64,000 nucleotides of DNA from an uncultured Candidatus Saccharibacteria bacterium (GCA_964450605.1 CAYVEK010000002.1:87681-151680); one strand, 5' to 3'; numbered from the stretch's first letter, positions 2,283-50,218 are shown. Notes: generated by a model from the sequence alone, not told the origin. Numbers and translations: made by a program.

Positions 2283-2951
2283 CTATTGTTGTGTATTATT
2301 TGTCTTAGTTTCAGCTGTTGGTGCTGGACGAATAAGTGATGAGAAGTTTACAGCATTTTCGACAACTGTTGTATTTATATTAAACACGGCCAAATCCTGA
2401 CCTCTTGCCTTACTGAAATCACTAATACTTGTGTTTTTAAATGTTTTCTGTGCTACAACTTCTGAGAACTGTTTATCCTGTACAACTATAGATTCATATC
2501 CAACTCCCTGAGCTTTTAAACCTAAAGAAAATGTACCATCAGGCTTTCTTTTAAGAGAAAATCCTGTAAGAGAGACTCTGTCCAAAGTATTTCTTCCTAC
2601 CTCTGCAAACAATGGACGCACAGCAACATGGTTATCAAGAAGAGTTTTTAATATTTCCAATCTGTCATTTACTGCTTTTAAATCTTCTATGGTTTGAGCA
2701 TTGCTTCTTTCTTGGTACTTTGCCAAAGCTTTTTCGGCAGTAGTTTTATTTGAAACAGAAAGCTTATCGAGTGAAAATACTACCCCTGCAGCAACCAAAC
2801 TGCATATAAAAACAAAGAAAGAAATGAGAGTAAATAAACTTCCTCCACTAAATATAGAGCTACTTCTTTTTTGTATATGACCTTTGTCATCTACAACATT
2901 ATCAAGTGATGCTCTTGGTATAAATGATGTTGTTTGAAATCTTGTTTCCAT
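2283..2951 (-). CDS. pilN: PilN-like fimbrial assembly protein
   Basis: 222 aa with a single TM helix after a short cytoplasmic N-terminus. It sits immediately downstream of pilM. Confidence 0.55.
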   Translation of the reverse strand: METRFQTTSFIPRASLDNVVDDKGHIQKRSSSIFSGGSLFTLISFFVFICSLVAAGVVFSLDKLSVSNKTTAEKALAKYQERSNAQTIEDLKAVNDRLEILKTLLDNHVAVRPLFAEVGRNTLDRVSLTGFSLKRKPDGTFSLGLKAQGVGYESIVVQDKQFSEVVAQKTFKNTSISDFSKARGQDLAVFNINTTVVENAVNFSSLIRPAPTAETKTNNTQQ

Positions 2952-4110: not shown

Positions 4111-4983
4111 TCATATCGCACTCTTTAATTCTCGCAAAGCTATAGCGACCTGTTCTTCTTTTTTAGGAGCACCTATAACATCACTTATACCTGGTGGAGT
4201 CCCATGCCATTCAAATCTATTTTCCATATAACTCACACCTTTGCCTGGAATAGTTTTTGCAATAATGATTGAAGGTTTTTCCGTTTCTTTTTTTGCCACG
4301 TCTATCGCACGTATCAATGCTTCTATATCATGCCCGTCAACTTGTTGTACATGCCAGTTAAACGCCTCCCATTTTTTATCTAGTGGATCCAAAGGCATCA
4401 CATGTTCGGTATTTCCATCTATTTGTATGTAATTACGATCAACTATGGCGATAAGATTCCCCAACTTTTCACGTGGAGCAAGCATAGCCGCTTCCCATAT
4501 CTGCCCTTCATCATGTTCTCCGTCTGACAATATACTATATATATAACGTGGATAATTTGAGCCAAATTCTCTTTTATCCGCTATAGCCATTCCTACTGCC
4601 TGAGAAAGTCCTGACCCAAGCGGACCCGAACTAGTCTCAAGTGCTGGTAAAAATTCTCTGTGTGGATGACCTTGCAATATAGAACCGAATTGTCGCAAAT
4701 TCATAAGTTGATCTAGAGAAAAATATCCTGCATGACCCATAGTTGCATACAATACTGGACATGTGTGGCCATTTGAAAGAACAAGACGATCCCTTTCTGG
4801 TGCAAACGGATGTTTAGCATCATGCCTCATTACCCCAAAATATAATGTCGCAAATATATCAGCTAAACCAAGAGGTCCTCCCGAGTGTCCTGATTTTGCT
4901 TTTGCGAGCATTTCTATAATAGATATTCTTATATCTCGAGCTTTTGTTTTTATATGTAATAAAGTATCAGAGTTAAGTGACAT
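4111..4983 (-). CDS. tkt: Transketolase, N-terminal (TPP-binding) subunit of a split transketolase
   Basis: 290 aa; the region SGHSGGPLGLADIFATLYF...NGHTCPVLYA...ILSDGEHDEGQIWEA matches the transketolase N-terminal section. No C-terminal subunit gene is adjacent. Confidence 0.85.
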   Translation of the reverse strand: MSLNSDTLLHIKTKARDIRISIIEMLAKAKSGHSGGPLGLADIFATLYFGVMRHDAKHPFAPERDRLVLSNGHTCPVLYATMGHAGYFSLDQLMNLRQFGSILQGHPHREFLPALETSSGPLGSGLSQAVGMAIADKREFGSNYPRYIYSILSDGEHDEGQIWEAAMLAPREKLGNLIAIVDRNYIQIDGNTEHVMPLDPLDKKWEAFNWHVQQVDGHDIEALIRAIDVAKKETEKPSIIIAKTIPGKGVSYMENRFEWHGTPPGISDVIGAPKKEEQVAIALRELKSAI

Positions 4984-4988
4984 AAATT

Positions 4989-5477
4989 TTATTTTTTAAG
5001 TTGAGCTATAGCAAACACATTATAATCTTGAGAGTTAACAATCATGAGATACCTATACGATCCTAGATTAAAATTTTCCGGTACTACGACTGAATAACCT
5101 TTATATGTATATGAAGGGGTTATGTATCCGAAATCGACATAATTTGTCTGATTTGAAACATTAGGAGTGTCCGCAAGCCACAAAGACCAGTTTCCTTGTG
5201 GAACCACCATATTTTCTGTTGTTAGAGACAAAACACTGTCAATTTGAGTTACACCAACTTTTCCAAATGTTTTATTAACACCTTGCGGATTACGAATAAC
5301 AAAAGTACCAAACACAGGATTTCCAGGAGTCAAATATGTTGAACCTACCTGAATCGGAGTTTTTACGGGGCCTATGGCAATATTACCAACACTAGACACT
5401 ACTGAAGGTAGATTTACCAACAATAGCAACATAACTACTATTAAAAATAGACCTATAAGCTTTTTCAGAATTCCCAT
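4989..5477 (-). CDS. Hypothetical secreted or membrane-anchored protein
   Basis: 162 aa with an N-terminal hydrophobic signal/anchor (LIGLFLIVVMLLLLV). No recognisable domain. Confidence 0.4.
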   Translation of the reverse strand: MGILKKLIGLFLIVVMLLLLVNLPSVVSSVGNIAIGPVKTPIQVGSTYLTPGNPVFGTFVIRNPQGVNKTFGKVGVTQIDSVLSLTTENMVVPQGNWSLWLADTPNVSNQTNYVDFGYITPSYTYKGYSVVVPENFNLGSYRYLMIVNSQDYNVFAIAQLKK

Positions 5478-8007: not shown

Positions 8008-9060
8008 TTACAAATCTTGCCCACCTGTAACTTTTTCAACTTTTGCTGACAAACCTGTCTCTTTATCAAAACTGTACTCACCTTTAAGTGCAAGAGTTAG
8101 CATATCAAGTCTGTCTTTTAATATCGCCTGACCTTCCGCTTCGTTTTCCGCATCTTTGGCAAAATGCGCAAGCACAGGATCTTGTATAGCTCGAGAATAT
8201 GAATATGTCATAGCAAATGGAAATGGACCAAGCTTCATAAGCTCTGATAGATTCATTGCTGCCTGAGTTGGAGTTTGTCCACCTGATAGAAATACTATAC
8301 CGCCGATATTTTTAGGAACAGTTGAAAGAAGGACATCTGCTGTGTGTTTTGCAACTTCTTCATGTGTAGCTGTTTCAACAGCACTTTTTCCAGAAAGCAC
8401 AAAAGATGTTTTGAGTATAACTCCTGTAATATCAACTTTATATAAAGCTAGTTCACCAAATAGATGCGTGAGTGTATTTTGTAATCGCTCGGCGCATTCA
8501 TATATAGAATGTGTTCCATCATATAACACTTCTGGTTCGATGATAGGTACCAAACCTGCTTGCTGTGCAAGTGATGCATAGAGCGCAAGGTTTCGCATAT
8601 TTGCCTCAACTCCACTGTCAGTAGAAGTCGTTACATCAACAACCGCTCGCCATTTTGTAAATCGTGCACCGAGTTTATAATATTCTTCAAGTCTTTCTTT
8701 TAGACCATCTAATCCTAGGGTTAGTTTTTCTCCTGTAAAGTTTGGCAAATCAACAAGACCTTTATCGACTTTGATACCTGGGACAATACCATGTTCAGTA
8801 CAATACTGTGCAAATGTTTTCCCCTTCTCTATCTCTTGTCTTAGAGTCTCATCATAAAATATAACTCCGCTTATATACTTCGATACATCTGGAGTTCCAA
8901 TAAGGAGTTTTCGGTACGCAAGACGATTCTCCTCTGTCTGTGCTATGCCAAGCGCTTCAAAACGCTTATGAATAGAGTTTGTGCTCTCATCAGCGGCCAA
9001 TAATCCTTTTCCTTCTGCAAATATCTGTTTGATTGTTTCGTGTAGTTTTTCTGTAGTCAT
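8008..9060 (-). CDS. fba: Fructose-bisphosphate aldolase, class I (eukaryote-type)
   Basis: GLLAADESTNSIHKRFEALGIAQTEENRLAYRKLL matches the class I FBA N-terminal signature. The protein is 350 aa. Confidence 0.85.
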   Translation of the reverse strand: MTTEKLHETIKQIFAEGKGLLAADESTNSIHKRFEALGIAQTEENRLAYRKLLIGTPDVSKYISGVIFYDETLRQEIEKGKTFAQYCTEHGIVPGIKVDKGLVDLPNFTGEKLTLGLDGLKERLEEYYKLGARFTKWRAVVDVTTSTDSGVEANMRNLALYASLAQQAGLVPIIEPEVLYDGTHSIYECAERLQNTLTHLFGELALYKVDITGVILKTSFVLSGKSAVETATHEEVAKHTADVLLSTVPKNIGGIVFLSGGQTPTQAAMNLSELMKLGPFPFAMTYSYSRAIQDPVLAHFAKDAENEAEGQAILKDRLDMLTLALKGEYSFDKETGLSAKVEKVTGGQDL

Positions 9061-12647: not shown

Positions 12648-13055
12648 CTATTTGAGTGTTCCTATCTGTTGTTTTGCCAAAGCGGCTTCAGGTCCTCTTT
12701 TTCCACCATGTTGTGCTGTAAAGTTTGCCGTACCGTCTATTCCACACATCTTTAAAATAGATTTCTGTCCGCCTGGATGCTTTGTAATAAATGAAGTCAC
12801 ATCGTAAACTTTTCCATTTACGATAGTCCAACAACTTGAAGCATTGTTATGAGTTGCAACATCAGCAACAGTATATGTCGCAGTCACACCTGCAGAGACT
12901 GAGGATGATGCAGTGCCTGGAGTAGCTGACGTTGGAGCTATCGGCTGATTATATGTTTCATTTTGAATTTTACCGAGATACATAACTCCTGCTATGAGTA
13001 ACACAATAAGAACTGCCACAACTATAAGTAAGTTTTTGTTTTGATTATTTTGCAT
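12648..13055 (-). CDS. Membrane-anchored cytochrome b5-like heme-binding domain protein
   Basis: N-terminal TM helix, Ser/Thr-rich linker, then VYDVTSFITKHPGG...FTAQHG (HPGG heme-ligand motif). Confidence 0.6.
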   Translation of the reverse strand: MQNNQNKNLLIVVAVLIVLLIAGVMYLGKIQNETYNQPIAPTSATPGTASSSVSAGVTATYTVADVATHNNASSCWTIVNGKVYDVTSFITKHPGGQKSILKMCGIDGTANFTAQHGGKRGPEAALAKQQIGTLK

Positions 13056-23993: not shown

Positions 23994-24022
23994 TTGACAT
24001 TTGTATCTATGGATTGTATTAT
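23994..24022 (+). promoter_or_regulatory. Sigma-70-like promoter TTGACA-17-TATTAT upstream of the radical SAM gene
   Basis: Consensus hexamers with 17-bp spacing. An AT-rich promoter abuts a GC-rich ORF. Confidence 0.5.
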
Positions 24023-24058
24023 TGCAGGCAGAAACCAAACCCTCAAACTCCCGCACAA

Positions 24059-25917
24059 TGAACAAAATAATCGCTCCCCTTCTCGTCATCTGTATGATGG
24101 CCTTGAACCTCACCACCAACACATCTTGGGAGGTTAATCTCTCACCAGACTCCGTCTGCAAAATGATCTACAACCACACGGACGTAGACAAACCAATCAC
24201 CCTCAAAGCTCGTTCTGTTGAAGTCGAGATGTACGTAGAGTACGGATGGGGTTGGAGGACAGTTAACGTGCTTGGTGAACCCAAGACCGAAATATCCTTC
24301 AAACCGGGCCCTGCATACATCGTTCCGATCTGTGATATCAGAGTGCTTTCCAATAAGAAACGTCATACCGACTTCGCCTTGCGAGTCTGCGCCGTGGCCG
24401 CTCCGTACTGGATATGCAATAAGAATCCAAATCGTCGCCTCAGCCTCAACAGTCGAACGCCATTCTCGTTGCAGAACGCTCTCCGATGTGTCGCTGAAGC
24501 AGCTCAAAACGAAGAAGGTCCACTCAATGCAAATTGGACTGATCCCGAACTCGTTCACGAATCAATGATGCTCTTCGATGATTACGAAGAGAACGCTGCC
24601 AGCTTTGCAGACCGCCTCCGGCTCATTCAGCCAAACGTCCTGTACATCGGATCAATGACCCTGTCTTTCCCCGGGGCTGTCGAACTTGCCCGCACAGCAA
24701 AGCAAATGTTTGGAGACGGGATTCTCGTAGTGCTTGGCGGCCGACATGTGAACGAAACGTTTTACACGGAGGCAAATCAAATCAAGCATCACAAAGGATC
24801 ACCGCTCCTACTTATGCAGCAAGGAAAGATCGACCAGGTCTTCGACTTGGTCGTCTCAGGCGATGGAGAGCATATATCATTAAAGATCGCCGAGATTGTC
24901 CAACGCGTCGCGACGGACAATCTAATGGTGCGAAACTTTTTTGATCACTCGCTCGAACTTTCCGAGGCTCCAGGAATCTGGCAAGCCGGATGGATCACCG
25001 CTCGGAACGAGATCGAAACGGTGCGTAGTTTAAAACCGCAAGACCGCAGCAGTTTACCAATCCCGGCAGAGGTCTTTGGTATCACCTCGCGCTTCCCTAT
25101 CTTTGGCACGGATTACACCGCGCACGTCTACAGCGATTCAAGTCGAGGCTGCGTGCGAGACTGCAGCTTCTGCAGCGAACGTCGATCAGTGGCCGGAGGT
25201 ATGCAAAACCCTGCGGCCAGTGCTGATCGATTGTTTAGACAGCTTCTTACAGTTCAAGAAATCGGCAGGATCAACGAGTGCTCGGTCAGTGCCTTCGTGG
25301 AGGATTCAATTCTCCTCGCCGGCAGTCCGCAGTACTTATCACGTCTTGCCGATCTTATGGAGAAATCCAAGTTCAACATGAGGTTCGGCGGTCAGTTCAC
25401 CGTAGCTGACCTAACAAACCCCCTCGTGCAACAACAGATTCAAAGACTACAGCAATATGGGTTGTACTATATCTACACAGGTATGGAAACAATCAACCCT
25501 GAAGCTGCGGCAGCCATGAGCAAAAACCGTAAGAAGAATACCCCGTGGTTAACACAAAACACCGAGGCTATAGACTTCGTGAGCAGGATCGGGCTAAAGT
25601 TCGGAGTGTCGGTTCTCTTCGGTATCGGCGAAAGCCAACTCGAGAGACTCCTACACCTGGACACACTCGCAGAGTGGCAGAGAGAATATCAAAACCCCTG
25701 CGTAGTCAGCCTGAATTGGGCGACCGAACACCCACTACTCAACCAGTCGTCACACGACTTTGTTGAGTGGGGCACCAACAGAGACGATCCTCGTCTTAGT
25801 TTGATGCAAGAGGTGTTCGGGGAATCATCCGCAAGGTATTGTTTCCACCCCCTACCCAACACAGAAGAACTCAGTATAATCGCGGAAAAGTTCAGAAACC
25901 TCAACAACCGTACGTAA
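24059..25917 (+). CDS. B12-binding-domain radical SAM enzyme (class B-like); GC-rich gene. The ORF-track start at 24001 is a TTG inside the promoter, so the likely start is ATG 24059 (MNKIIAPLLV...)
   Basis: CxxxCxxC motif in GCVRDCSFCSE. An upstream Rossmann-like B12-binding-type segment (ILVVLGGRHV) is present. About 50% GC by eye versus roughly 36% background. The N-terminal ~150 aa are unassigned and include a hydrophobic leader. Confidence 0.65.
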
Positions 25918-31209: not shown

Positions 31210-31890
31210 TTATAAAATATACTTACCTTCTGGACTATCGAGAACTACGCGGCCATCTTTCATAGTTATAACTCTTCGACCAAGATTATCTATCACACCA
31301 ACATTGTGTGTTGTAAGAATAATAGTTGTTCCAAGATCATTGATCTTTTTCAACAACTGAATAATCTCATATGTGTTTACTGGATCAAGATTTCCTGTAG
31401 GCTCATCAGCAATAATAAGATCTGGCTGATTAACGATCGCTCGAGCAATAGCAATACGCTGTCTCTCTCCTCCTGAAAGTTCATCAGGAAAGTTATGCGC
31501 TTTATGTTTAAGACCAACAAGCTCAAGTGCATGTGGTACATCTGACTCTATCTCTTCGTCAGGACGACCTGCTGCTTCCATGGCGAATGCTACATTTTCA
31601 TAGGCTGTTTTATCTGGCAACAAACGAAAATCCTGAAATACTGTTCCAACACGTCGACGATATTCATTTATCTGTCGCTTTTTAAGTTTGTGAATATTTA
31701 CCTCTTCAAAAGTCATCTCGCCCTCTGTAGGTATCTCTTCCGCAAGTATAAGTTTAAGAAGTGTAGTCTTTCCTGCACCTGAATGTCCGACAATAGACAC
31801 AAATTCTTTTGGTTTAATATGAATATTTATATCTTTAAGCGCTATATCACCTGTATGATACAGCTTAGTTACTTTATTGAACTTCAGCAT
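31210..31890 (-). CDS. ftsE: Cell division ABC ATPase FtsE
   Basis: Walker A GHSGAGKTT, LSGGERQR signature, Walker B IIADEPT. Confidence 0.9.
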   Translation of the reverse strand: MLKFNKVTKLYHTGDIALKDINIHIKPKEFVSIVGHSGAGKTTLLKLILAEEIPTEGEMTFEEVNIHKLKKRQINEYRRRVGTVFQDFRLLPDKTAYENVAFAMEAAGRPDEEIESDVPHALELVGLKHKAHNFPDELSGGERQRIAIARAIVNQPDLIIADEPTGNLDPVNTYEIIQLLKKINDLGTTIILTTHNVGVIDNLGRRVITMKDGRVVLDSPEGKYIL

Positions 31891-36111: not shown

Positions 36112-38484
36112 TTAGCCCTTAACCACAAAACTCACAATCTTGTTTTTGATATAGATAGTTTTAACAATCTCCTTGCCGTCAAGATGACTTGCGACTATCT
36201 TATGAGCTCTGTCGAGTACTGATTTTTCTTCTTCACCCTCTTCTATCTCTATCTCACCTCGCAATTTTCCATTTACCTGAATACCAACAACTACAGTGTC
36301 CGCCAATATCTTTTTCATATCAACTTTTGGCCAATCACTTAGATGAATAGATTTTTTATTTCCAAACTTAGTCCACAACTCTTCAGATATATGTGAAGCA
36401 AATGGGGCAATAAGTTTTAAGAATGTTTCAAAATCTTTTTGCGGAACACTCTCACATGTTTCTAATTCATTTAACAAAATCATGAGTGATGATACTGCAG
36501 TATTGAAACAAAATGTATCGATATCCTCTGTAACTTTTTTAATAGTTTTATGTATATGTGATACGATCTTAGGATCAAGTTTTGTTTTATTTTTACTATC
36601 AACTTTTTCAGCAAGTCGCCATACACGATCAACAAAACGCCGTGTTCCGATAATACTGTCAGTACTCCAAGGCAATGAAGAATCAAATGGACCAATAAAC
36701 ATCTCGTACAATCTAAACGCATCGGCTCCGTATGTGTTTATACAATCATCAGGATTAACTACATTTCCCCATCGCTTACTCATCTTACGATTGTCAGAGG
36801 CTAGTATCATGCCTTGATTTTTCAAAACCTTAAACGGTTCATCAGTTGGAACAAGCCCCAGGTCATACAAAAACTTATGCCAAAATCGTGAATACAGCAA
36901 ATGCCCAGTTGCGTGTTCTGCACCACCTACATACACATCAACATCTCTCCATAGTTCTACCGCTTTTTTACTTGCGAACGCTGATTTATTTTTAGGATCC
37001 ATGTATCGCAAGAAGTACCAAGAAGAGCCTGCCCATCCTGGCATAGTATTTGTTTCGTACCCAGCTTTCATCCAAGATGAAATAGCAGCGAGTGGAGACT
37101 CTCCTGTTCCTGTCGGTTCATATGAAGTTACTTTTGGTAGATTTAATGGAAGCTCTGATGTTTTAAGAGGTACAACAACTCCATCTTTATCATGCTTTAT
37201 AGGCACAGGTTCGCCCCAATATCGCTGTCGAGCGAAAACTGCGTCACGCATTTTGTACTGAAATGTTTTTTGAGCACCTATACGTTTTGCTACCTGTTCA
37301 GCATCTTCCAAAATAACAGTCTTTATATCTATATTGTATTTTTGAGCAAATTCTTTATCTCTATCATCCTCATCTGGCACACCCATAACTGCACCTGTTC
37401 CATACCCTGATAAAACATAGTTTGCTACATATATGGGAATATGTTTTTTTGTATCAGGATGAATGGCTGATACACCTTCAACCAGAATACCAATTTTTTC
37501 TTTTAAATCCTGCTCATTATTTGACCAATGTTTTGACTGTTCAGCATAGTCACTTGCTATAGGATGATCTCTGGCAATAACCATAAAAGTAATTCCTGAC
37601 AGTGTATCAAGTCTTGTCGTGTATGCTTCTAGAGAATCCACCCCATTAACCGGAGTACTTAATCTGAACACAACTTTGTGACCTTGACTCTTTCCTATCC
37701 AATTTCGCTGAATTGTTTTTATGTGCTCACTCCAGCCTAGCTTATCCAAACCAGAAAGCAATCGATCAGCATATGCTGAGATGCGCATAAACCACTGACG
37801 CATCAGCTTTTTTTCAACTGGAAAACCTCCTCGCTCACTTTTACCGTCTATAATCTCATCGTTGGCAAGCACCGTACCAAGTCCTGGACACCAGTTTACT
37901 TCACTGTAGCCCTCATAAGCCAAGCGATATTTCATCAACTCTTTTTCTTTTTCAATCTTTGTTAGTTTTTTCCACTCTTTTGTTTTTTCTAGCTTTGCAA
38001 TCAACTCTTTGATCGGCCGAGCTTTGTTTTTCTTTTCATCATAATATGAATTATATAGCTGTAAGAAAATCCACTGTGTCCATTTATAATATTCTGGATC
38101 AGTCGTGTTTACTCGTCGAGACCAGTCATATGAAAGACCGATGATAGATAACTGTTTTTCAAACGTTTTAACATTTACCTCCACCGCTTTTCGCGGATGA
38201 ACTTTATGTTCAATAGCATATTGCTCCGCTGGAAGACCGAATGCATCATATCCCATAGGGTGTAATACGTTATACCCTTGCATACGCTTCATACGAGCAT
38301 ACACATCACTTCCTATATATCCACGAGGATGTCCTACATGCAAACCTGCCCCAGATGGGTACGGGAACATGTCGAGAACATACATTTTTTTCTTCTTTTT
38401 ATCCTGAGCTGTTTTATATGTTTGTTTTTTATTCCACTCCTTCTGCCACTTAGCGTCTGTTTTTTTATGATCGTAAAATTTCAT
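36112..38484 (-). CDS. leuS: Leucyl-tRNA synthetase
   Basis: HIGH-type motif (HVGHPRGY), the KMSKRWGN motif, and a length of 790 aa. Confidence 0.95.
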   Translation of the reverse strand: MKFYDHKKTDAKWQKEWNKKQTYKTAQDKKKKKMYVLDMFPYPSGAGLHVGHPRGYIGSDVYARMKRMQGYNVLHPMGYDAFGLPAEQYAIEHKVHPRKAVEVNVKTFEKQLSIIGLSYDWSRRVNTTDPEYYKWTQWIFLQLYNSYYDEKKNKARPIKELIAKLEKTKEWKKLTKIEKEKELMKYRLAYEGYSEVNWCPGLGTVLANDEIIDGKSERGGFPVEKKLMRQWFMRISAYADRLLSGLDKLGWSEHIKTIQRNWIGKSQGHKVVFRLSTPVNGVDSLEAYTTRLDTLSGITFMVIARDHPIASDYAEQSKHWSNNEQDLKEKIGILVEGVSAIHPDTKKHIPIYVANYVLSGYGTGAVMGVPDEDDRDKEFAQKYNIDIKTVILEDAEQVAKRIGAQKTFQYKMRDAVFARQRYWGEPVPIKHDKDGVVVPLKTSELPLNLPKVTSYEPTGTGESPLAAISSWMKAGYETNTMPGWAGSSWYFLRYMDPKNKSAFASKKAVELWRDVDVYVGGAEHATGHLLYSRFWHKFLYDLGLVPTDEPFKVLKNQGMILASDNRKMSKRWGNVVNPDDCINTYGADAFRLYEMFIGPFDSSLPWSTDSIIGTRRFVDRVWRLAEKVDSKNKTKLDPKIVSHIHKTIKKVTEDIDTFCFNTAVSSLMILLNELETCESVPQKDFETFLKLIAPFASHISEELWTKFGNKKSIHLSDWPKVDMKKILADTVVVGIQVNGKLRGEIEIEEGEEEKSVLDRAHKIVASHLDGKEIVKTIYIKNKIVSFVVKG

Positions 38485-45325: not shown

Positions 45326-45354
45326 TTGACTTTTAGCACTAAATGCTGTATTAT
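45326..45354 (+). promoter_or_regulatory. Sigma-70-like promoter TTGACT-17-TATTAT
   Basis: Consensus hexamers with 17-bp spacer, about 115 bp upstream of the GC-rich gene at 45470. Confidence 0.5.
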
Positions 45355-45378
45355 ACGAGCGCACCTTAACACTATTTT

Positions 45379-45422
45379 CATTGCATGATTAAGATCATTT
45401 TTGTGATTTTAATCATGCAATG
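45379..45422 (+). promoter_or_regulatory. Perfect 14-bp inverted repeat (CATTGCATGATTAA-N16-TTAATCATGCAATG) in the 5'UTR
   Basis: Seen directly. It lies between the promoter and the start codon, so it may be an operator or an RNA stem-loop. Confidence 0.5.
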
Positions 45423-45469
45423 GAAGACAAAAATTCATCAACCAAAACCCTTCTGTTGCATGCATCACC

Positions 45470-46237
45470 ATGAAAATCCGCATTCTACTGGTCCTCGTGA
45501 CCATCCTCATCACCCTGCTCTTCAACAGCACCGCCTCAGCAACCGCTGAGAAGGATGGAGGGTTTGGCAAACCCTCCATCACTACCCACGTCGAGTGGGC
45601 TCAACAATACCTCGCCTTCGGGGCGGGGATAAACCTCACAGACGACCCTGTTCTGCAAGGCTCCATTACCCTTAACTGGGATAATGGCACCTACCTGTTT
45701 TTATGGGGTTCCACTGATATGTCTGGTCGGCCCGGAAGCTCACTCGGGGACGAGTATGATCTCGGGCTAGGTTGGGCCGGCAACCTCAAAGGCTGGAGCA
45801 TCGACATCGGTGTCACCTACTTCGACGAACCCCACATGGGGAAAGTCGGACATCTCGGCGAAGAAGACATCCTGTATGTGCACCTGAAGGCTGGTCGCGA
45901 TATCGGCCGTGGATGGACCGCATCAGCAGCATTTGAAAGCTATATCACCATGCCGAACACTGAGTACAACGGTGGAAACCTGTACTCAGTCGAGTTGGCA
46001 AAAACTTTCAAAGCATCAGAACGGCTGTCCTTCCCCTTCTCGATCTCTGCCGTCTACGATGATGGTGGGTTCGGATTTGATTCCGGCTGGTTCCTTCGTG
46101 GGAACCTGGGCGCAGACATCACCCTGTCGAAAACACTCACCGCCAATATCGGCGGACGGTACTATGTGCCGTTTGATGTTGACGACGGAAGAGAAACCGA
46201 TGCAATGCTCTACCTCGGCTTCACGTGGAAGCCGTAA
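45470..46237 (+). CDS. GC-rich (~55%) secreted beta-rich protein with outer-membrane beta-barrel-like character (MipA/OmpV/OmpW-like alternating strands)
   Basis: Signal peptide; repeated alternating hydrophobic/polar beta-strand segments; aromatic-rich C-terminus (YLGFTWKP); composition is atypical for this genome. Confidence 0.35.
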   Translation: MKIRILLVLVTILITLLFNSTASATAEKDGGFGKPSITTHVEWAQQYLAFGAGINLTDDPVLQGSITLNWDNGTYLFLWGSTDMSGRPGSSLGDEYDLGLGWAGNLKGWSIDIGVTYFDEPHMGKVGHLGEEDILYVHLKAGRDIGRGWTASAAFESYITMPNTEYNGGNLYSVELAKTFKASERLSFPFSISAVYDDGGFGFDSGWFLRGNLGADITLSKTLTANIGGRYYVPFDVDDGRETDAMLYLGFTWKP

Positions 46238-46318
46238 CGGGGTCGATAAGTACCCCAAACTTATCAATTGCGCACGAGTCCGGAAACGGGCACGGGCGCT
46301 TTTTATGTAACAATATTA

Positions 46319-48337
46319 TTATTGAATCTTTGGATTTACTGTTATTTTAAAGTTTTGATATAAAAAATATTTACCATAATCACCGCCTTCATGAATATTG
46401 ATTTTAAAATAACCGGTGTACACTTTAGGTGTTGTCCCATCACTATTTAGATATGAATCATTTAAATACCTATTAATAGTCGCTGTTCCTCGTGCACCAC
46501 CGCTCGATGTGCCCAGAGAACCATATGTAGGCAACCCTTCACCATAGCCATATACCGAAAATCCAAAAGTTTTATTTGTATCACTTGATACTATTTTAAT
46601 AGTAAAATCTTTATTACCCTCACCATCAGTCATTACTAGATCAAGAGTACACTGGTCAAGTGTATATGTTACTGCTCCTACTAACACACTTTGAGGACAG
46701 TCTGCAAAATTTGATGGATTTAGAATTGTAGGCTCAGAAATTTGGGTTACCACAGGAGGTGAAACAACTGATGATGGAACGCTGATCCGTGCCGTTGCAG
46801 GAATAACGTATGTAGATGTTGGCGACAACGTACCACTACTTATTTCACTGACACCGTAGAATGAACTTATACCCGCATCATCAATAAATCTAAGTCCCGT
46901 AGGTCCATATACTTGAAATTTAATATTGTAAGAAGTGTCAGTTAACTTGGCGGCAAAAACATCTATGTTTAGATTTTTTCGACTATTTTTTGGAACACTA
47001 AAGCCTAGACTGGCCAATTGAATATAATACACTCCCTCATATTTAGTAAATGATGAAGTATTAACAGGAATTGTTGCTAATACGACATTTCCATCTCTAA
47101 CAACAAAAGATTTTATTACTTCTGCAGGATTAAGAACTTCTCCTTTTAAATTTGTTAAAGTAGTTTGCATATTTACTCGAGCAAGTTGTACATTTCCACC
47201 CACAGCTTCCACTGAGATAGTATATGCTCTGAATGAATCATCTTGACTTGTAATATTTGTACTTACAGGAACCGTAGGAGTTGCTGTAGAAGTAGGATTG
47301 GTTGTTGATCCAGGGACTATCTGACTGTTTATTAACGCACGTGTTATTGGCCCAACATATCCATCACCAGGCTGAATATTATTTGCTAACTGATAACCTA
47401 TAACCGCTTTTTTTGTCTCAAAATCAAATGAACCTGTAGGCGCTATATTTAACCAACCTTTAAGTGCCAGAAATCTTTGTAACTTAAGAACCTCGCTACC
47501 TGTCATGCCTATTTCAAGGTTTGTATTGATATATGGAGACTGATCAATGGCAACAACTGTAGTTGCTGGCGCTGAAACACTAATAATTCCAGAACTTACA
47601 GTTCTACCATATCCACCTTTTATAGTAGGTACAATTTGTTCGTCATATAGCTCTATATTATATCTTCCTGCTGGAACCGTGTTAAACACTAATGCATTTT
47701 GCACTTTGCAACCAACTTTTGTTAGATCTACACGTGCAACACCTGCAGCAACATCAAAATATCCGAGATCACAGTAAAGTTTTCCTTGTGAATTAAAAGC
47801 TGTGTCAACAAGTATTGCGTGAAGATTACCTTTTATATTGTATATATGATTCCAACGAATTTCATACACTTTACCAAGCTCCCATGTTTCATCAGATTTC
47901 TGAGTGATTAGTTGCACAAATGGACCTGCCACATATTCTCTCAGATAGTCTTTATTATTAGAACCAGAAGTCTGGTCCGTTGATGGTGTTGAAATATTAT
48001 TACATGAAATATTTTTAATTTTCAGACGTGTCGATGGTCCAACATATCCTGTTGGGGATATCTGATTAGCAGATTGAAAGCTTTTTACAGCCCTTACAGT
48101 TGCGAGACCAAAAAAACCACTGGGATTTGTATTTAAATACTTATTTTCTTGTAGAAAATCCTGAAGGACAGAAACCTCACCATTTGTGAGTGAGTCTACA
48201 GATCGGTAGCGAAGATTATTTTTAATATCTAAACAAGAACTAGTTCCTTCAGGATCGATATCTGTATCTTGTGCAAAAACCGAAACCTGTATACTGCAAC
48301 TAAAAATAAGTACTGCTAAAAAAAATAGTTTATTCAT
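46319..48337 (-). CDS. Large secreted protein with two peptidoglycan-binding (PG_binding_1-like) domains and beta-rich repeats
   Basis: Signal peptide; the PGB-like segments are GEVSVLQDFLQENKYL...VKSFQSANQI and MTGSEVLKLQRFLALKGW...VIGYQLANNI. Confidence 0.55.
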   Translation of the reverse strand: MNKLFFLAVLIFSCSIQVSVFAQDTDIDPEGTSSCLDIKNNLRYRSVDSLTNGEVSVLQDFLQENKYLNTNPSGFFGLATVRAVKSFQSANQISPTGYVGPSTRLKIKNISCNNISTPSTDQTSGSNNKDYLREYVAGPFVQLITQKSDETWELGKVYEIRWNHIYNIKGNLHAILVDTAFNSQGKLYCDLGYFDVAAGVARVDLTKVGCKVQNALVFNTVPAGRYNIELYDEQIVPTIKGGYGRTVSSGIISVSAPATTVVAIDQSPYINTNLEIGMTGSEVLKLQRFLALKGWLNIAPTGSFDFETKKAVIGYQLANNIQPGDGYVGPITRALINSQIVPGSTTNPTSTATPTVPVSTNITSQDDSFRAYTISVEAVGGNVQLARVNMQTTLTNLKGEVLNPAEVIKSFVVRDGNVVLATIPVNTSSFTKYEGVYYIQLASLGFSVPKNSRKNLNIDVFAAKLTDTSYNIKFQVYGPTGLRFIDDAGISSFYGVSEISSGTLSPTSTYVIPATARISVPSSVVSPPVVTQISEPTILNPSNFADCPQSVLVGAVTYTLDQCTLDLVMTDGEGNKDFTIKIVSSDTNKTFGFSVYGYGEGLPTYGSLGTSSGGARGTATINRYLNDSYLNSDGTTPKVYTGYFKINIHEGGDYGKYFLYQNFKITVNPKIQ

Positions 48338-49607: not shown

Positions 49608-49662
49608 TTTGTGTGGTGGGTTTGGTATGATGTGAGGTGAACTTAACCACCAATCCAGCACC

Positions 49663-50064
49663 ATGAAACTGCTACATCCAGCTGACCCCGCTCTGATAAC
49701 AGCCCTTCAAAGGGTAATCCGATCTGCACAAGATCAACAATGCTCCATACCTGAGGACCCTGAAGAAACCCCTATCGCCGAACTTTTCGAGTCTTCCGCA
49801 AGAAGCGAGAACTCACAAGCGTTTCGAAAGATGATGTTCGACCGTTTCTCTCGCGGGATCGTACTTTGCGAACTTATCCCCACTGTCGAAGGAAGGAAAG
49901 TTTGCCTTGAGGTCTGTCCTGCTGCCAACTTCAGGGTCGTTATCCCTGGCCAGTGCAACATCGGAGTCGATCTCCGGACGACCGTAAAGATATGTGCACT
50001 GGTTCACCCAAGCACTCCTTTTTCACAGATTCTGCACAGTGCAATCGAAAAGGCGATGCAATAG
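49663..50064 (+). CDS. GC-rich (~52%) hypothetical protein, Cys-containing
   Basis: No known domain. A hairpin (ccccgagggtttttcgggg) plus T-run terminator follows. Confidence 0.3.
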   Translation: MKLLHPADPALITALQRVIRSAQDQQCSIPEDPEETPIAELFESSARSENSQAFRKMMFDRFSRGIVLCELIPTVEGRKVCLEVCPAANFRVVIPGQCNIGVDLRTTVKICALVHPSTPFSQILHSAIEKAMQ

Positions 50065-50218
50065 TGCAGACACGACCATATCACACCCAGCCCCGAGGGT
50101 TTTTCGGGGCACTTTTTATTATTTGACTTCACTTACAAAAACACTATAATAACATCGTACTTCGAGTATTTAAAACTTCTCTAAGAGCAGAAAAACGGCT
50201 ACTGCCACTAGTCTTAGA

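Follow-up and report, generated by a model that had tools for sequence, protein, structure and literature searches.

The 64-kb window examined here, meaning the whole stretch of 64,000 nucleotides, is part of a 270-kb contig and carries on its + strand a compact gene for an exported protein. A coding sequence of 255 codons (45470..46237) is preceded by a sigma-70-type promoter (45326..45354) and by a leader that contains a long RNA hairpin (45376..45425), and it is followed by an intrinsic terminator (46270..46304). The first-pass annotation had marked the promoter, a perfect inverted repeat, and a GC-rich reading frame for a protein with a signal peptide and alternating amphipathic strands. 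All of these are present, and the repeat extends to a 23-bp stem.

The promoter, found in a consensus scan, consists of a −35 hexamer (TTGACT, 45326-45331), a 17-nt spacer and a −10 hexamer (TATTAT, 45349-45354), matching the consensus at 10 of 12 positions. By itself such a match is at chance level, with 4 sites found against 3.1 expected in shuffles. It gains weight because an equivalent promoter, TTGAC(A/T)-N17-(TGn)TAnnAT, stands in the same relative place before every homologous gene read (TTGAC-N17-(TG)TAnnAT at related loci L001, L002, L003, L004, L015, L017, L018, L024, L029, L030, L033 and L034). This strong consensus promoter would start transcription at about 45361, as predicted from its position, and would yield an mRNA with a 5′UTR of ~109 nt (45361..45469, + strand) in which no Shine-Dalgarno motif can be read. 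Among 58 window genes, 24 have a −10-like hexamer ending 4–12 nt 5′ of the start codon and a single one has a Shine-Dalgarno core; leaderless mRNAs seem to be the rule in this genome, and a leader of ~109 nt is therefore exceptional here. On the 3′ side of the hairpin the leader is C/A-rich and G-poor, and the leaders of L001, L004, L029 and L030 are likewise C/A-rich. This stretch upstream of the AUG would offer an unstructured ribosome landing site.

The terminator comprises a GC-rich stem (46270-46299) and a TTTTT tract (46300-46304), identified from its fold, and equivalent terminators lie downstream of the homologues. Closed by this element, the locus would form a self-contained, monocistronic expression unit. 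Elsewhere in the window, two further GC-rich genes, one for a radical-SAM protein and one a 133-aa ORF, also have C/A-rich leaders that lack Shine-Dalgarno motifs; of the two, only the radical-SAM gene was found to have a consensus promoter, and the radical-SAM protein has a hydrophobic segment at its N-terminus.

The protein begins with a predicted Sec-type signal peptide (residues 1-24, 45470..45541), which reads MKIRILLVLVTILITLLFNSTASA and is followed by TAEKD. It has an MKIR n-region, a hydrophobic core of 14 residues and a predicted signal peptidase I cut after ASA; AF2 models place a helix at residues 2-19 and then a low-confidence linker. The protein is acidic and contains no cysteine, and it is therefore not a lipoprotein. 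AF2 predicts a β-barrel of 12 strands, with the same topology whether the alignment held 8 sequences (pLDDT 79.5) or 72 (pLDDT 91.2, pTM 0.82). All 12 predicted strands alternate between a hydrophobic face (mean KD +1.77; L, I, A, W, V, Y, F) and a polar face (−1.04). In the model the barrel is closed, antiparallel and even-stranded with a hydrophobic lipid-facing surface, as outer-membrane (OM) proteins are. The coding sequence also contains a perfect 13-bp inverted repeat with a 1-nt spacer (45554..45580, + strand, 100% complementary). It coincides with a five-codon insertion (GGFGK) that the homologues lack in the protein alignment, and the sequence looks like that of a templated (snap-back) insertion.

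Sequence comparisons place the protein at the edge of the TorF/Gcw_chp family, which is mainly proteobacterial. It scores 32.3 bits on TIGR02001 (TorF; E = 7e-8; curated cut-off 47.15) and 19.2 bits on PF09694 (Gcw_chp; curated cut-off 24). Falling below both cut-offs counts against our assignment; nonetheless, a Pfam search at E ≤ 1 returned no family besides Gcw_chp. TIGR02001 is the sole family matched by 28 of 72 relatives, four relatives (P0004, P0006, P0010 and P0157) carry precomputed PF09694 matches, and two are named ‘TorF family putative porin’ by NCBI. When the profile of the 72 relatives was aligned by HHalign with TorF of Novosphingobium, a bona fide member that scores 164.5 bits on TIGR02001, the match extended over 119 columns with a probability of 97.5% and E = 8.4e-12. 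The window protein shares with the family a length of ~240-260 aa with a signal peptide and the motifs DPxxQ, GxYxxxWxS, ExDxxxGWxG and DxGVxYF/Y; it differs in its sub-threshold scores, in the missing C-terminal Phe of its clade, and in that the named carriers of its close subfamily are all members of the CPR. Judged by these comparisons it is a remote member of the TorF superfamily, from a CPR branch. The first-pass annotation was thus right to see an OM-type β-barrel but had looked to OmpW, MipA or OmpV for its kin. Its alternative of a secreted β-sandwich is excluded by the closed 12-strand AF2 barrel and the TorF homology, and a structured non-coding RNA in place of a protein gene was rejected in view of the family match and of protein conservation to E = 1e-44 at 38% identity.

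A PDB sequence search returned no relative of the window protein and no solved structure for the TorF family, and we found no tested function for the family in the literature. The nearest likeness in fold is to the 12-stranded OM channels KdgM/NanC, VhGalP and Tsx, which are also small and acidic, and the window protein is apparently monomeric in the same way. The likeness is in fold only: identity is 8-12%, with no relationship at the sequence level, and the protein does not match the KdgM Pfam family. On the strength of that fold we infer that the barrel is most likely a small passive channel like KdgM, NanC or Tsx. Against a channel role it can be held that barrels of 12 strands also include enzymes (OMPLA, LpxR) and plugged translocators.

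The breadth of the family depends on the search. A word-indexed search recovered 9 relatives; an exhaustive profile search recovered 996 cluster representatives at E ≤ 1e-3, 491 at ≤ 1e-10 and 73 at ≤ 1e-30. Scanning a collection of species-representative genomes with one short peptide pattern, which covers the close subfamily only, gave 9 loci, 7 of them in CPR-labelled MAGs (5 genomes) and 2 in MAGs without a lineage name. The CPR labels of carrier MAGs are Parcubacteria, Saccharibacteria (three genomes, one with two copies), Taylorbacteria and Minisyncoccia, and wherever a carrier of the close subfamily has a taxonomic name, it belongs to the CPR. Around 20 family loci the flanks hold compact housekeeping genes (NusA, trigger factor, ClpP, RNase Y, aminoacyl-tRNA synthetases, DnaB, RecR), and no OM genes were found among them.

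In diderms, a C-terminal Phe serves as the hallmark β-signal read by BAM. Within the family, 112 of 156 members end in Phe, in the context G-x-x-aromatic-x-F, and so do most of the proteins from CPR-labelled or lineage-unnamed MAGs. The clade of the window protein is different, with the ends WKP, WKP, KLGGKK, ITR and WKH. An OMP-type terminus had been proposed for the window protein, and its last residues, LGFTWKP, are indeed aromatic-rich; the final residue is Pro, so that the C-terminal aromatic β-signal, one defining feature of OM proteins, is absent. From these sequences the clade appears to have lost the terminal Phe, and the loss may record a relaxed dependence on a BAM-type insertase.

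The gene order of the window is that of a contig from a ‘Candidatus Parcubacteria bacterium’ MAG (L001/L006), and a third lineage, L015, is syntenic with it as well; on this basis the genome is assigned to the CPR, in agreement with the monoderm organism presumed at the outset. Its ORFs include LeuRS, YbeY, FtsA, FtsZ, TrxR, L10, L7/L12, PilM and a VirD4/TraG-like ATPase, together with a pentose-phosphate and glycolysis gene set and large surface proteins with lectin, Big_5, PG-binding, LCAT and β-helix domains. A binning or assembly artefact was rejected, as the gene lies inside long contigs among housekeeping genes.

Synteny also bears on how the gene came to be there. The first-pass annotation had suggested a trophy of horizontal transfer, and composition at first sight favors a recent acquisition from a GC-rich diderm, with the gene a passenger whose GC content is the donor's: the ORF has a GC content of 54.3% against 38% for the window, its codons look foreign (22 of 28 Leu codons are CTC or CTG, against CTT, CTA and TTA elsewhere), and the wider TorF family is proteobacterial. 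Its position argues otherwise. In the window, in L001 and in L015 the barrel gene adjoins, in the same place, a gene for an exported GH3 glycosidase. Between window and L001 it has diverged on a par with its neighbors, at 57% identity compared with 62% for GH3, 58% for a hypothetical protein, 37% for an LCAT protein and 71-91% for core proteins. Where conserved residues have four-fold degenerate codons, the third base is the same in 27-33% of cases, which equals random expectation, and synonymous sites are therefore saturated. Promoter, leader and hairpin are conserved too. The best non-CPR match has 42% identity over only 27% of the protein, phage sequences gave no match in the donor search, plasmids gave one weak match that is itself a canonical TorF protein, and the collections searched yielded no close relative from a diderm. 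We consider recent import extremely improbable. As far as these comparisons reach, the gene is a resident, vertically inherited within the Parcubacteria clade.

The unusual composition would then call for another explanation. C occupies 38-60% of four-fold sites in every orthologue, and in nearly all loci the gene is richer in GC than its flanks (0.586 vs 0.412, 0.560 vs 0.392 and 0.497 vs 0.368). Since the C excess persists despite saturated synonymous sites, the composition is actively maintained. The ORF has a GC3 of 0.64, whereas 62 ORFs of the window average 0.286 (sd 0.087), which makes an excess of about 4 sd. This is not the usual signature of high expression, a candidate we rejected because the ribosomal-protein genes for L10 and L7/L12 have a GC3 of 0.24. 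The pattern indicates that selection or a gene-specific bias maintains the C-rich codon usage, which is no leftover of transfer. Selection on the mRNA, for example for resistance to AU-directed endonucleases, could be the means.

The inverted repeat in the leader, for which a repressor operator and a regulatory RNA stem had both been proposed, has perfect 14-bp core arms, CATTGCATGATTAA (45379-45392) and TTAATCATGCAATG (45409-45422), with 16 nt between them (45379-45422 overall). As RNA the + strand folds into a 23-bp hairpin closed by a 4-nt loop, and 3 of its pairs are G-U; at −29.9 kcal/mol (z = −9.9) it is more stable than the fold of any of 200 shuffled sequences. Stems of 21-23 bp occupy the same place in L001, L004/L015 and L030, making four lineages with the window, and energies across these stems range from −24 to −30 kcal/mol (z −6.7 to −9.9). 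In an alignment of these four distinct sequences, on which the covariation rests, pairing is kept in 94% of cells and drops to 32-48% if one partner is slid. Five pairs are compensatory, with both sides changed; one G-U pair is invariant and four more positions use G-U, in each case on the + strand only. The basal 12 bp are kept in sequence, beyond pairing, and the apical half varies among lineages in sequence and internal loops. L010/L020 have in the 5′UTR a hairpin of the same length (~22-23 bp) and unrelated sequence. In the closest relative, L029 (66% identity), the flanking leader is kept and the hairpin is absent, which makes the hairpin a dispensable, accessory module.

A DNA operator would bind a dimeric repressor, with TTGCATG repeats as the half-sites. 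The perfect 14-bp symmetry in the window, the sequence conservation of the basal 12 bp, a third copy of the TTGCATG core near the start codon and the TrmB-family regulator genes that adjoin the homologues in L003 and L031 all speak for such a site. Half-sites of an operator have fixed spacing and symmetry on both strands. Here the gap between the conserved arms is 16 nt in the window and ~24 nt in L001, L004/L015 and L030, and the G-U pairs at five positions are strand-specific, since on the other strand they would be A-C mismatches. The five compensatory changes and the stem of equal length built from unrelated sequence in L010/L020 point the same way. A search for further copies, as members of a regulon, found none in the 64-kb window with up to 2 mismatches and none in 375 kb of related loci. 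We regard an operator as very unlikely; because of the compensatory changes, the G-U pairs confined to the + strand and the variable arm distance, the palindrome is best read from these alignments as the core of an RNA hairpin whose pairing is under conservation.

As to what such a hairpin might do, the sequence 3′ of the stem is GGAAGACAAAAA in the window and GGAAACAC, GATAAACAC or GAGTACC in relatives. There is no U-tract after the stem in any of them, and the hairpin is therefore no terminator. Rfam 15 contains no family for the hairpin or for the whole locus: the best match is the 23S-methyl motif (25.4 bits against a threshold of 50), and the remaining sub-threshold matches for the hairpin are generic miRNA-hairpin models. 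Downstream lies a copy of the 5′-arm core (CTTCTGTTGCATG, 45450..45462, + strand), which can pair as an inverted repeat (85% complementary) with the hairpin 3′ arm (45414-45426) once the 5′ arm is absent. Such a copy is found downstream in all four leaders, and the alternative helix has an energy of −14.9 kcal/mol in the window, −9.1 in L001 and −7.8 in L030. A thermodynamic, riboswitch-like toggle between the two structures was rejected, as the hairpin forms first and exceeds the alternative helix in stability by 15-20 kcal/mol.

Structured stem-loops in 5′UTRs are known to set mRNA stability or processing, as in the E. coli ompA leader, the B. subtilis aprE leader and RNase III leader sites. 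The window hairpin is comparable to these in its long, stable stem without a U-tract and, by analogy, in its position in the leader of what may be an abundant envelope protein. At 21-23 bp, or about two helical turns, the stems (window, L001, L004/L015, L030) also have the size of a classical RNase III substrate, for which about 20 bp or more is expected; no rnc gene occurs among the scanned window ORFs. In contrast to the known leaders, the window stem has no sequence or Rfam relationship to them, lies off the very 5′ end and is missing from L029. The last two points count against our explanation, as the ~14 unpaired nt that the predicted start leaves 5′ of the stem are not ideal for a 5′-end stabilizer. 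The hairpin most likely sets mRNA fate, as a stabilizer or as a processing site for a double-strand-specific (RNase III-type) enzyme. If the 5′ arm were lost, the 3′ arm could re-pair with the downstream arm copy and create a new 5′-proximal stem. The arm copy fits this model of processing followed by refolding, short of proof.

An OM-type barrel is unexpected in such a host, as the first-pass annotation had recognized. Gene-content and cryo-EM studies indicate that CPR lack an outer membrane and report no PilQ, TonB or OMPs (PMC6744442, PMC7137472, 10.1101/2025.01.22.634366); no BAM machinery is known in them either (PMC6744442, PMC7137472). A full set of OM biogenesis genes would have made the barrel unremarkable. 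In the 64-kb window we found nothing OM-related, which also weighs against placing the protein in an OM-like layer. A lipid-embedded barrel thus has no obvious home, because CPR have no known outer membrane or BAM machinery, and KdgM/NanC, VhGalP and Tsx themselves sit in a true LPS outer membrane. MspA-type porins of the mycolata show that pore proteins can occur outside the classical diderms, in a lineage classed as Gram-positive. These differ in being octameric goblets in a mycolic-acid outer membrane and not monomeric 12-strand barrels, share no homology with the window protein, and belong to a membrane for which no genes are known in CPR.

Taken together, the locus is probably a monocistronic unit for a resident, Sec-exported and lipid-embedded 12-strand barrel of the TorF/Gcw_chp type, likely a passive channel, with a leader hairpin that would set the fate of its mRNA. 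The barrel would sit in a lipid layer outside the cytoplasmic membrane, which could be a so far unrecognized outer lipid-containing layer of the CPR cell or its contact zone with the host.

It is also conceivable, if unlikely, that the CPR cell exports the barrel into a host membrane, for instance the OM of a diderm at the attachment site, where it would leak nutrients to the epibiont. CPR bacteria live as obligate epibionts on monoderm and diderm hosts (10.1101/2024.03.08.584096). Such cells lack many biosynthetic pathways and have no outer membrane of their own, and the GH3 glycosidase encoded next door is exported too. The BAM-type Phe retained in 112 of the 156 members would have a use only where it is read by some BAM, perhaps that of the host. 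Several points oppose this idea: BAM works from the periplasmic side, no monomeric OMP is known to insert from outside through an LPS leaflet, the locus has no linked genes for secretion or delivery, and the window clade has lost the terminal Phe.

Quite unlikely, in our judgment, is that the carriers are really diderm, or possess an outer lipid layer with an assembly system of their own, in which the gene would be an ordinary porin. Its conservation, its strong promoter and the β-signal kept in most members would fit a structural OMP, and few CPR lineages have been imaged so far (PMC8871954). The studies that found no OM, PilQ, TonB or OMPs in CPR stand against it, as does the lack of anything OM-related in the window or in the flanks of the ~20 loci. 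We retain the reading of a resident, probably channel-forming barrel in a lipid layer beyond the cytoplasmic membrane.

We found no papers describing OM-type barrels in CPR. What is already known is that automated annotation labels some relatives ‘TorF family putative porin’. To judge from the alignments, selection acts on the protein as well as on the nucleotide sequence of the locus, which has a leader structure of its own. Tentatively, and with more doubt than for the locus itself, we suggest that several CPR classes regarded as strictly monoderm keep an OM-type porin and express it strongly, which would imply either an unseen outer lipid layer with BAM-independent insertion or a nutrient-tapping pore exported into the host envelope. 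The window clade may then record the loss of BAM dependence through the loss of Phe, and the gene would be one of a small set of C-rich genes with leaders in which selection keeps codon usage far from the genome norm.

CPR/Patescibacteria account for a large part of the diversity of bacteria and are treated as monoderm in reconstructions of the gain and loss of the outer membrane. A conserved and, from its promoter, apparently strongly expressed OM-type barrel in these organisms would challenge the simple monoderm picture. To our knowledge almost nothing is known of the rules of gene expression in CPR, and a GC3 ~4 sd above the mean in spite of saturation, combined with a long structured leader, provides a handle on them. 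The barrel may point to an unrecognized envelope layer, or to a new route by which an epibiont opens a channel to its hosts or within them, and the family offers a concrete protein to localize in the few CPR-host co-cultures now available.

The leader of the barrel gene, which encodes a divergent TorF/Gcw_chp-family protein, carries a further conserved sequence besides its hairpin. The interval from the -10 box to the hairpin holds a G(C/T)AGTACTTTGA(C/T) motif, which occupies 45357-45372 in the window and equivalent positions in five other loci with barrel homologues (L001, L004, L015, L029 and L030). The motif is retained in L029 despite the absence of the hairpin. Compared with the copies in these loci, that of the window, GCGCACCTTAAC, is the most diverged.

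Another branch of the barrel family carries a different conserved element, composed of two hairpins in the arrangement P1-ACUUUAUUGG-P2-CAUAGAG, and no TTGACA promoter is recognisable in this branch. The element is found approximately 60-150 nt upstream of the barrel gene ATG in L011, L013, L014, L019 and L022, and downstream of the barrel gene in L008 (6743-6812). Covariation was observed at 11 of its 25 predicted pairs, and comparison with Rfam gave no match at E ≤ 0.1. L013, a contig of uncultured bacterium VK3_bin-1048, also contains a candidate type III hammerhead ribozyme (4976-5031, + strand) with a complete CUGAUGAG...GAAAC core. It scores 43.3 bits, slightly below the Rfam gathering score of 48.5, and the barrel gene lies about 1 kb downstream of it.

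Within the barrel coding sequence, a perfect inverted repeat of 13 bp with a 1-nt spacer (45554-45580, + strand) marks the site of a 15-nt in-frame insertion (GGFGK) that is missing from homologues; this looks like a templated snap-back insertion. The surroundings of the gene also vary. In L001 and L015, the loci syntenic with the window, the barrel gene directly adjoins the gene for the exported glycosidase GH3, and in the window the two are separated by a gene whose secreted product, of 672 aa, has two PG_binding_1 domains (46319-48337, - strand). Two kinds of gene recur beside barrel homologues in neighbourhoods that otherwise differ: TrmB-family regulators, in L003 (6422-7231 and 8455-9189) and L031 (9092-9829), and a SAM-dependent methyltransferase of ~240-255 aa, in L002 (11351-12118), L004 (1614-2336) and the contig encoding the relative P0008. 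A further relative, P0009, is a 297-aa 'ribose 5-phosphate isomerase B' on a 1810-nt JGI contig, in which an RpiB N-terminus is fused to a barrel homologue's C-terminal two thirds, probably through a frameshift or an assembly chimera.

The barrel gene is the first of three GC-rich outliers in the window. The second (23995-25917, + strand; GC 0.50, GC3 0.58) encodes a radical-SAM-domain protein of 638/619 aa with a hydrophobic N-terminal segment, MNKIIAPLLVICMMALN. Its promoter is TTGACA-17-TATTAT, and its C/A-rich leader, which has no Shine-Dalgarno motif, resembles that of the barrel gene. The third is a 133-aa ORF (49640-50118, + strand; GC3 0.50) that gave no match in a family search and is missing from the syntenic locus L001. 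Its leader reads 'aacttaaccaccaatccagcaccATG', and its terminator-like stem is accompanied by a T-run.

Start signals were read for 58 genes of the window, among them 2283..2951, 8008..9060, 12648..13055, 31210..31890 and 36112..38484 (all on the - strand). A Shine-Dalgarno motif precedes a single gene (1/58), and in 24/58 a TATAAT-like box ends 4-12 nt upstream of the start codon. Shine-Dalgarno motifs thus seem to be almost unused by this genome, and, given both counts, leaderless mRNAs look like its norm.
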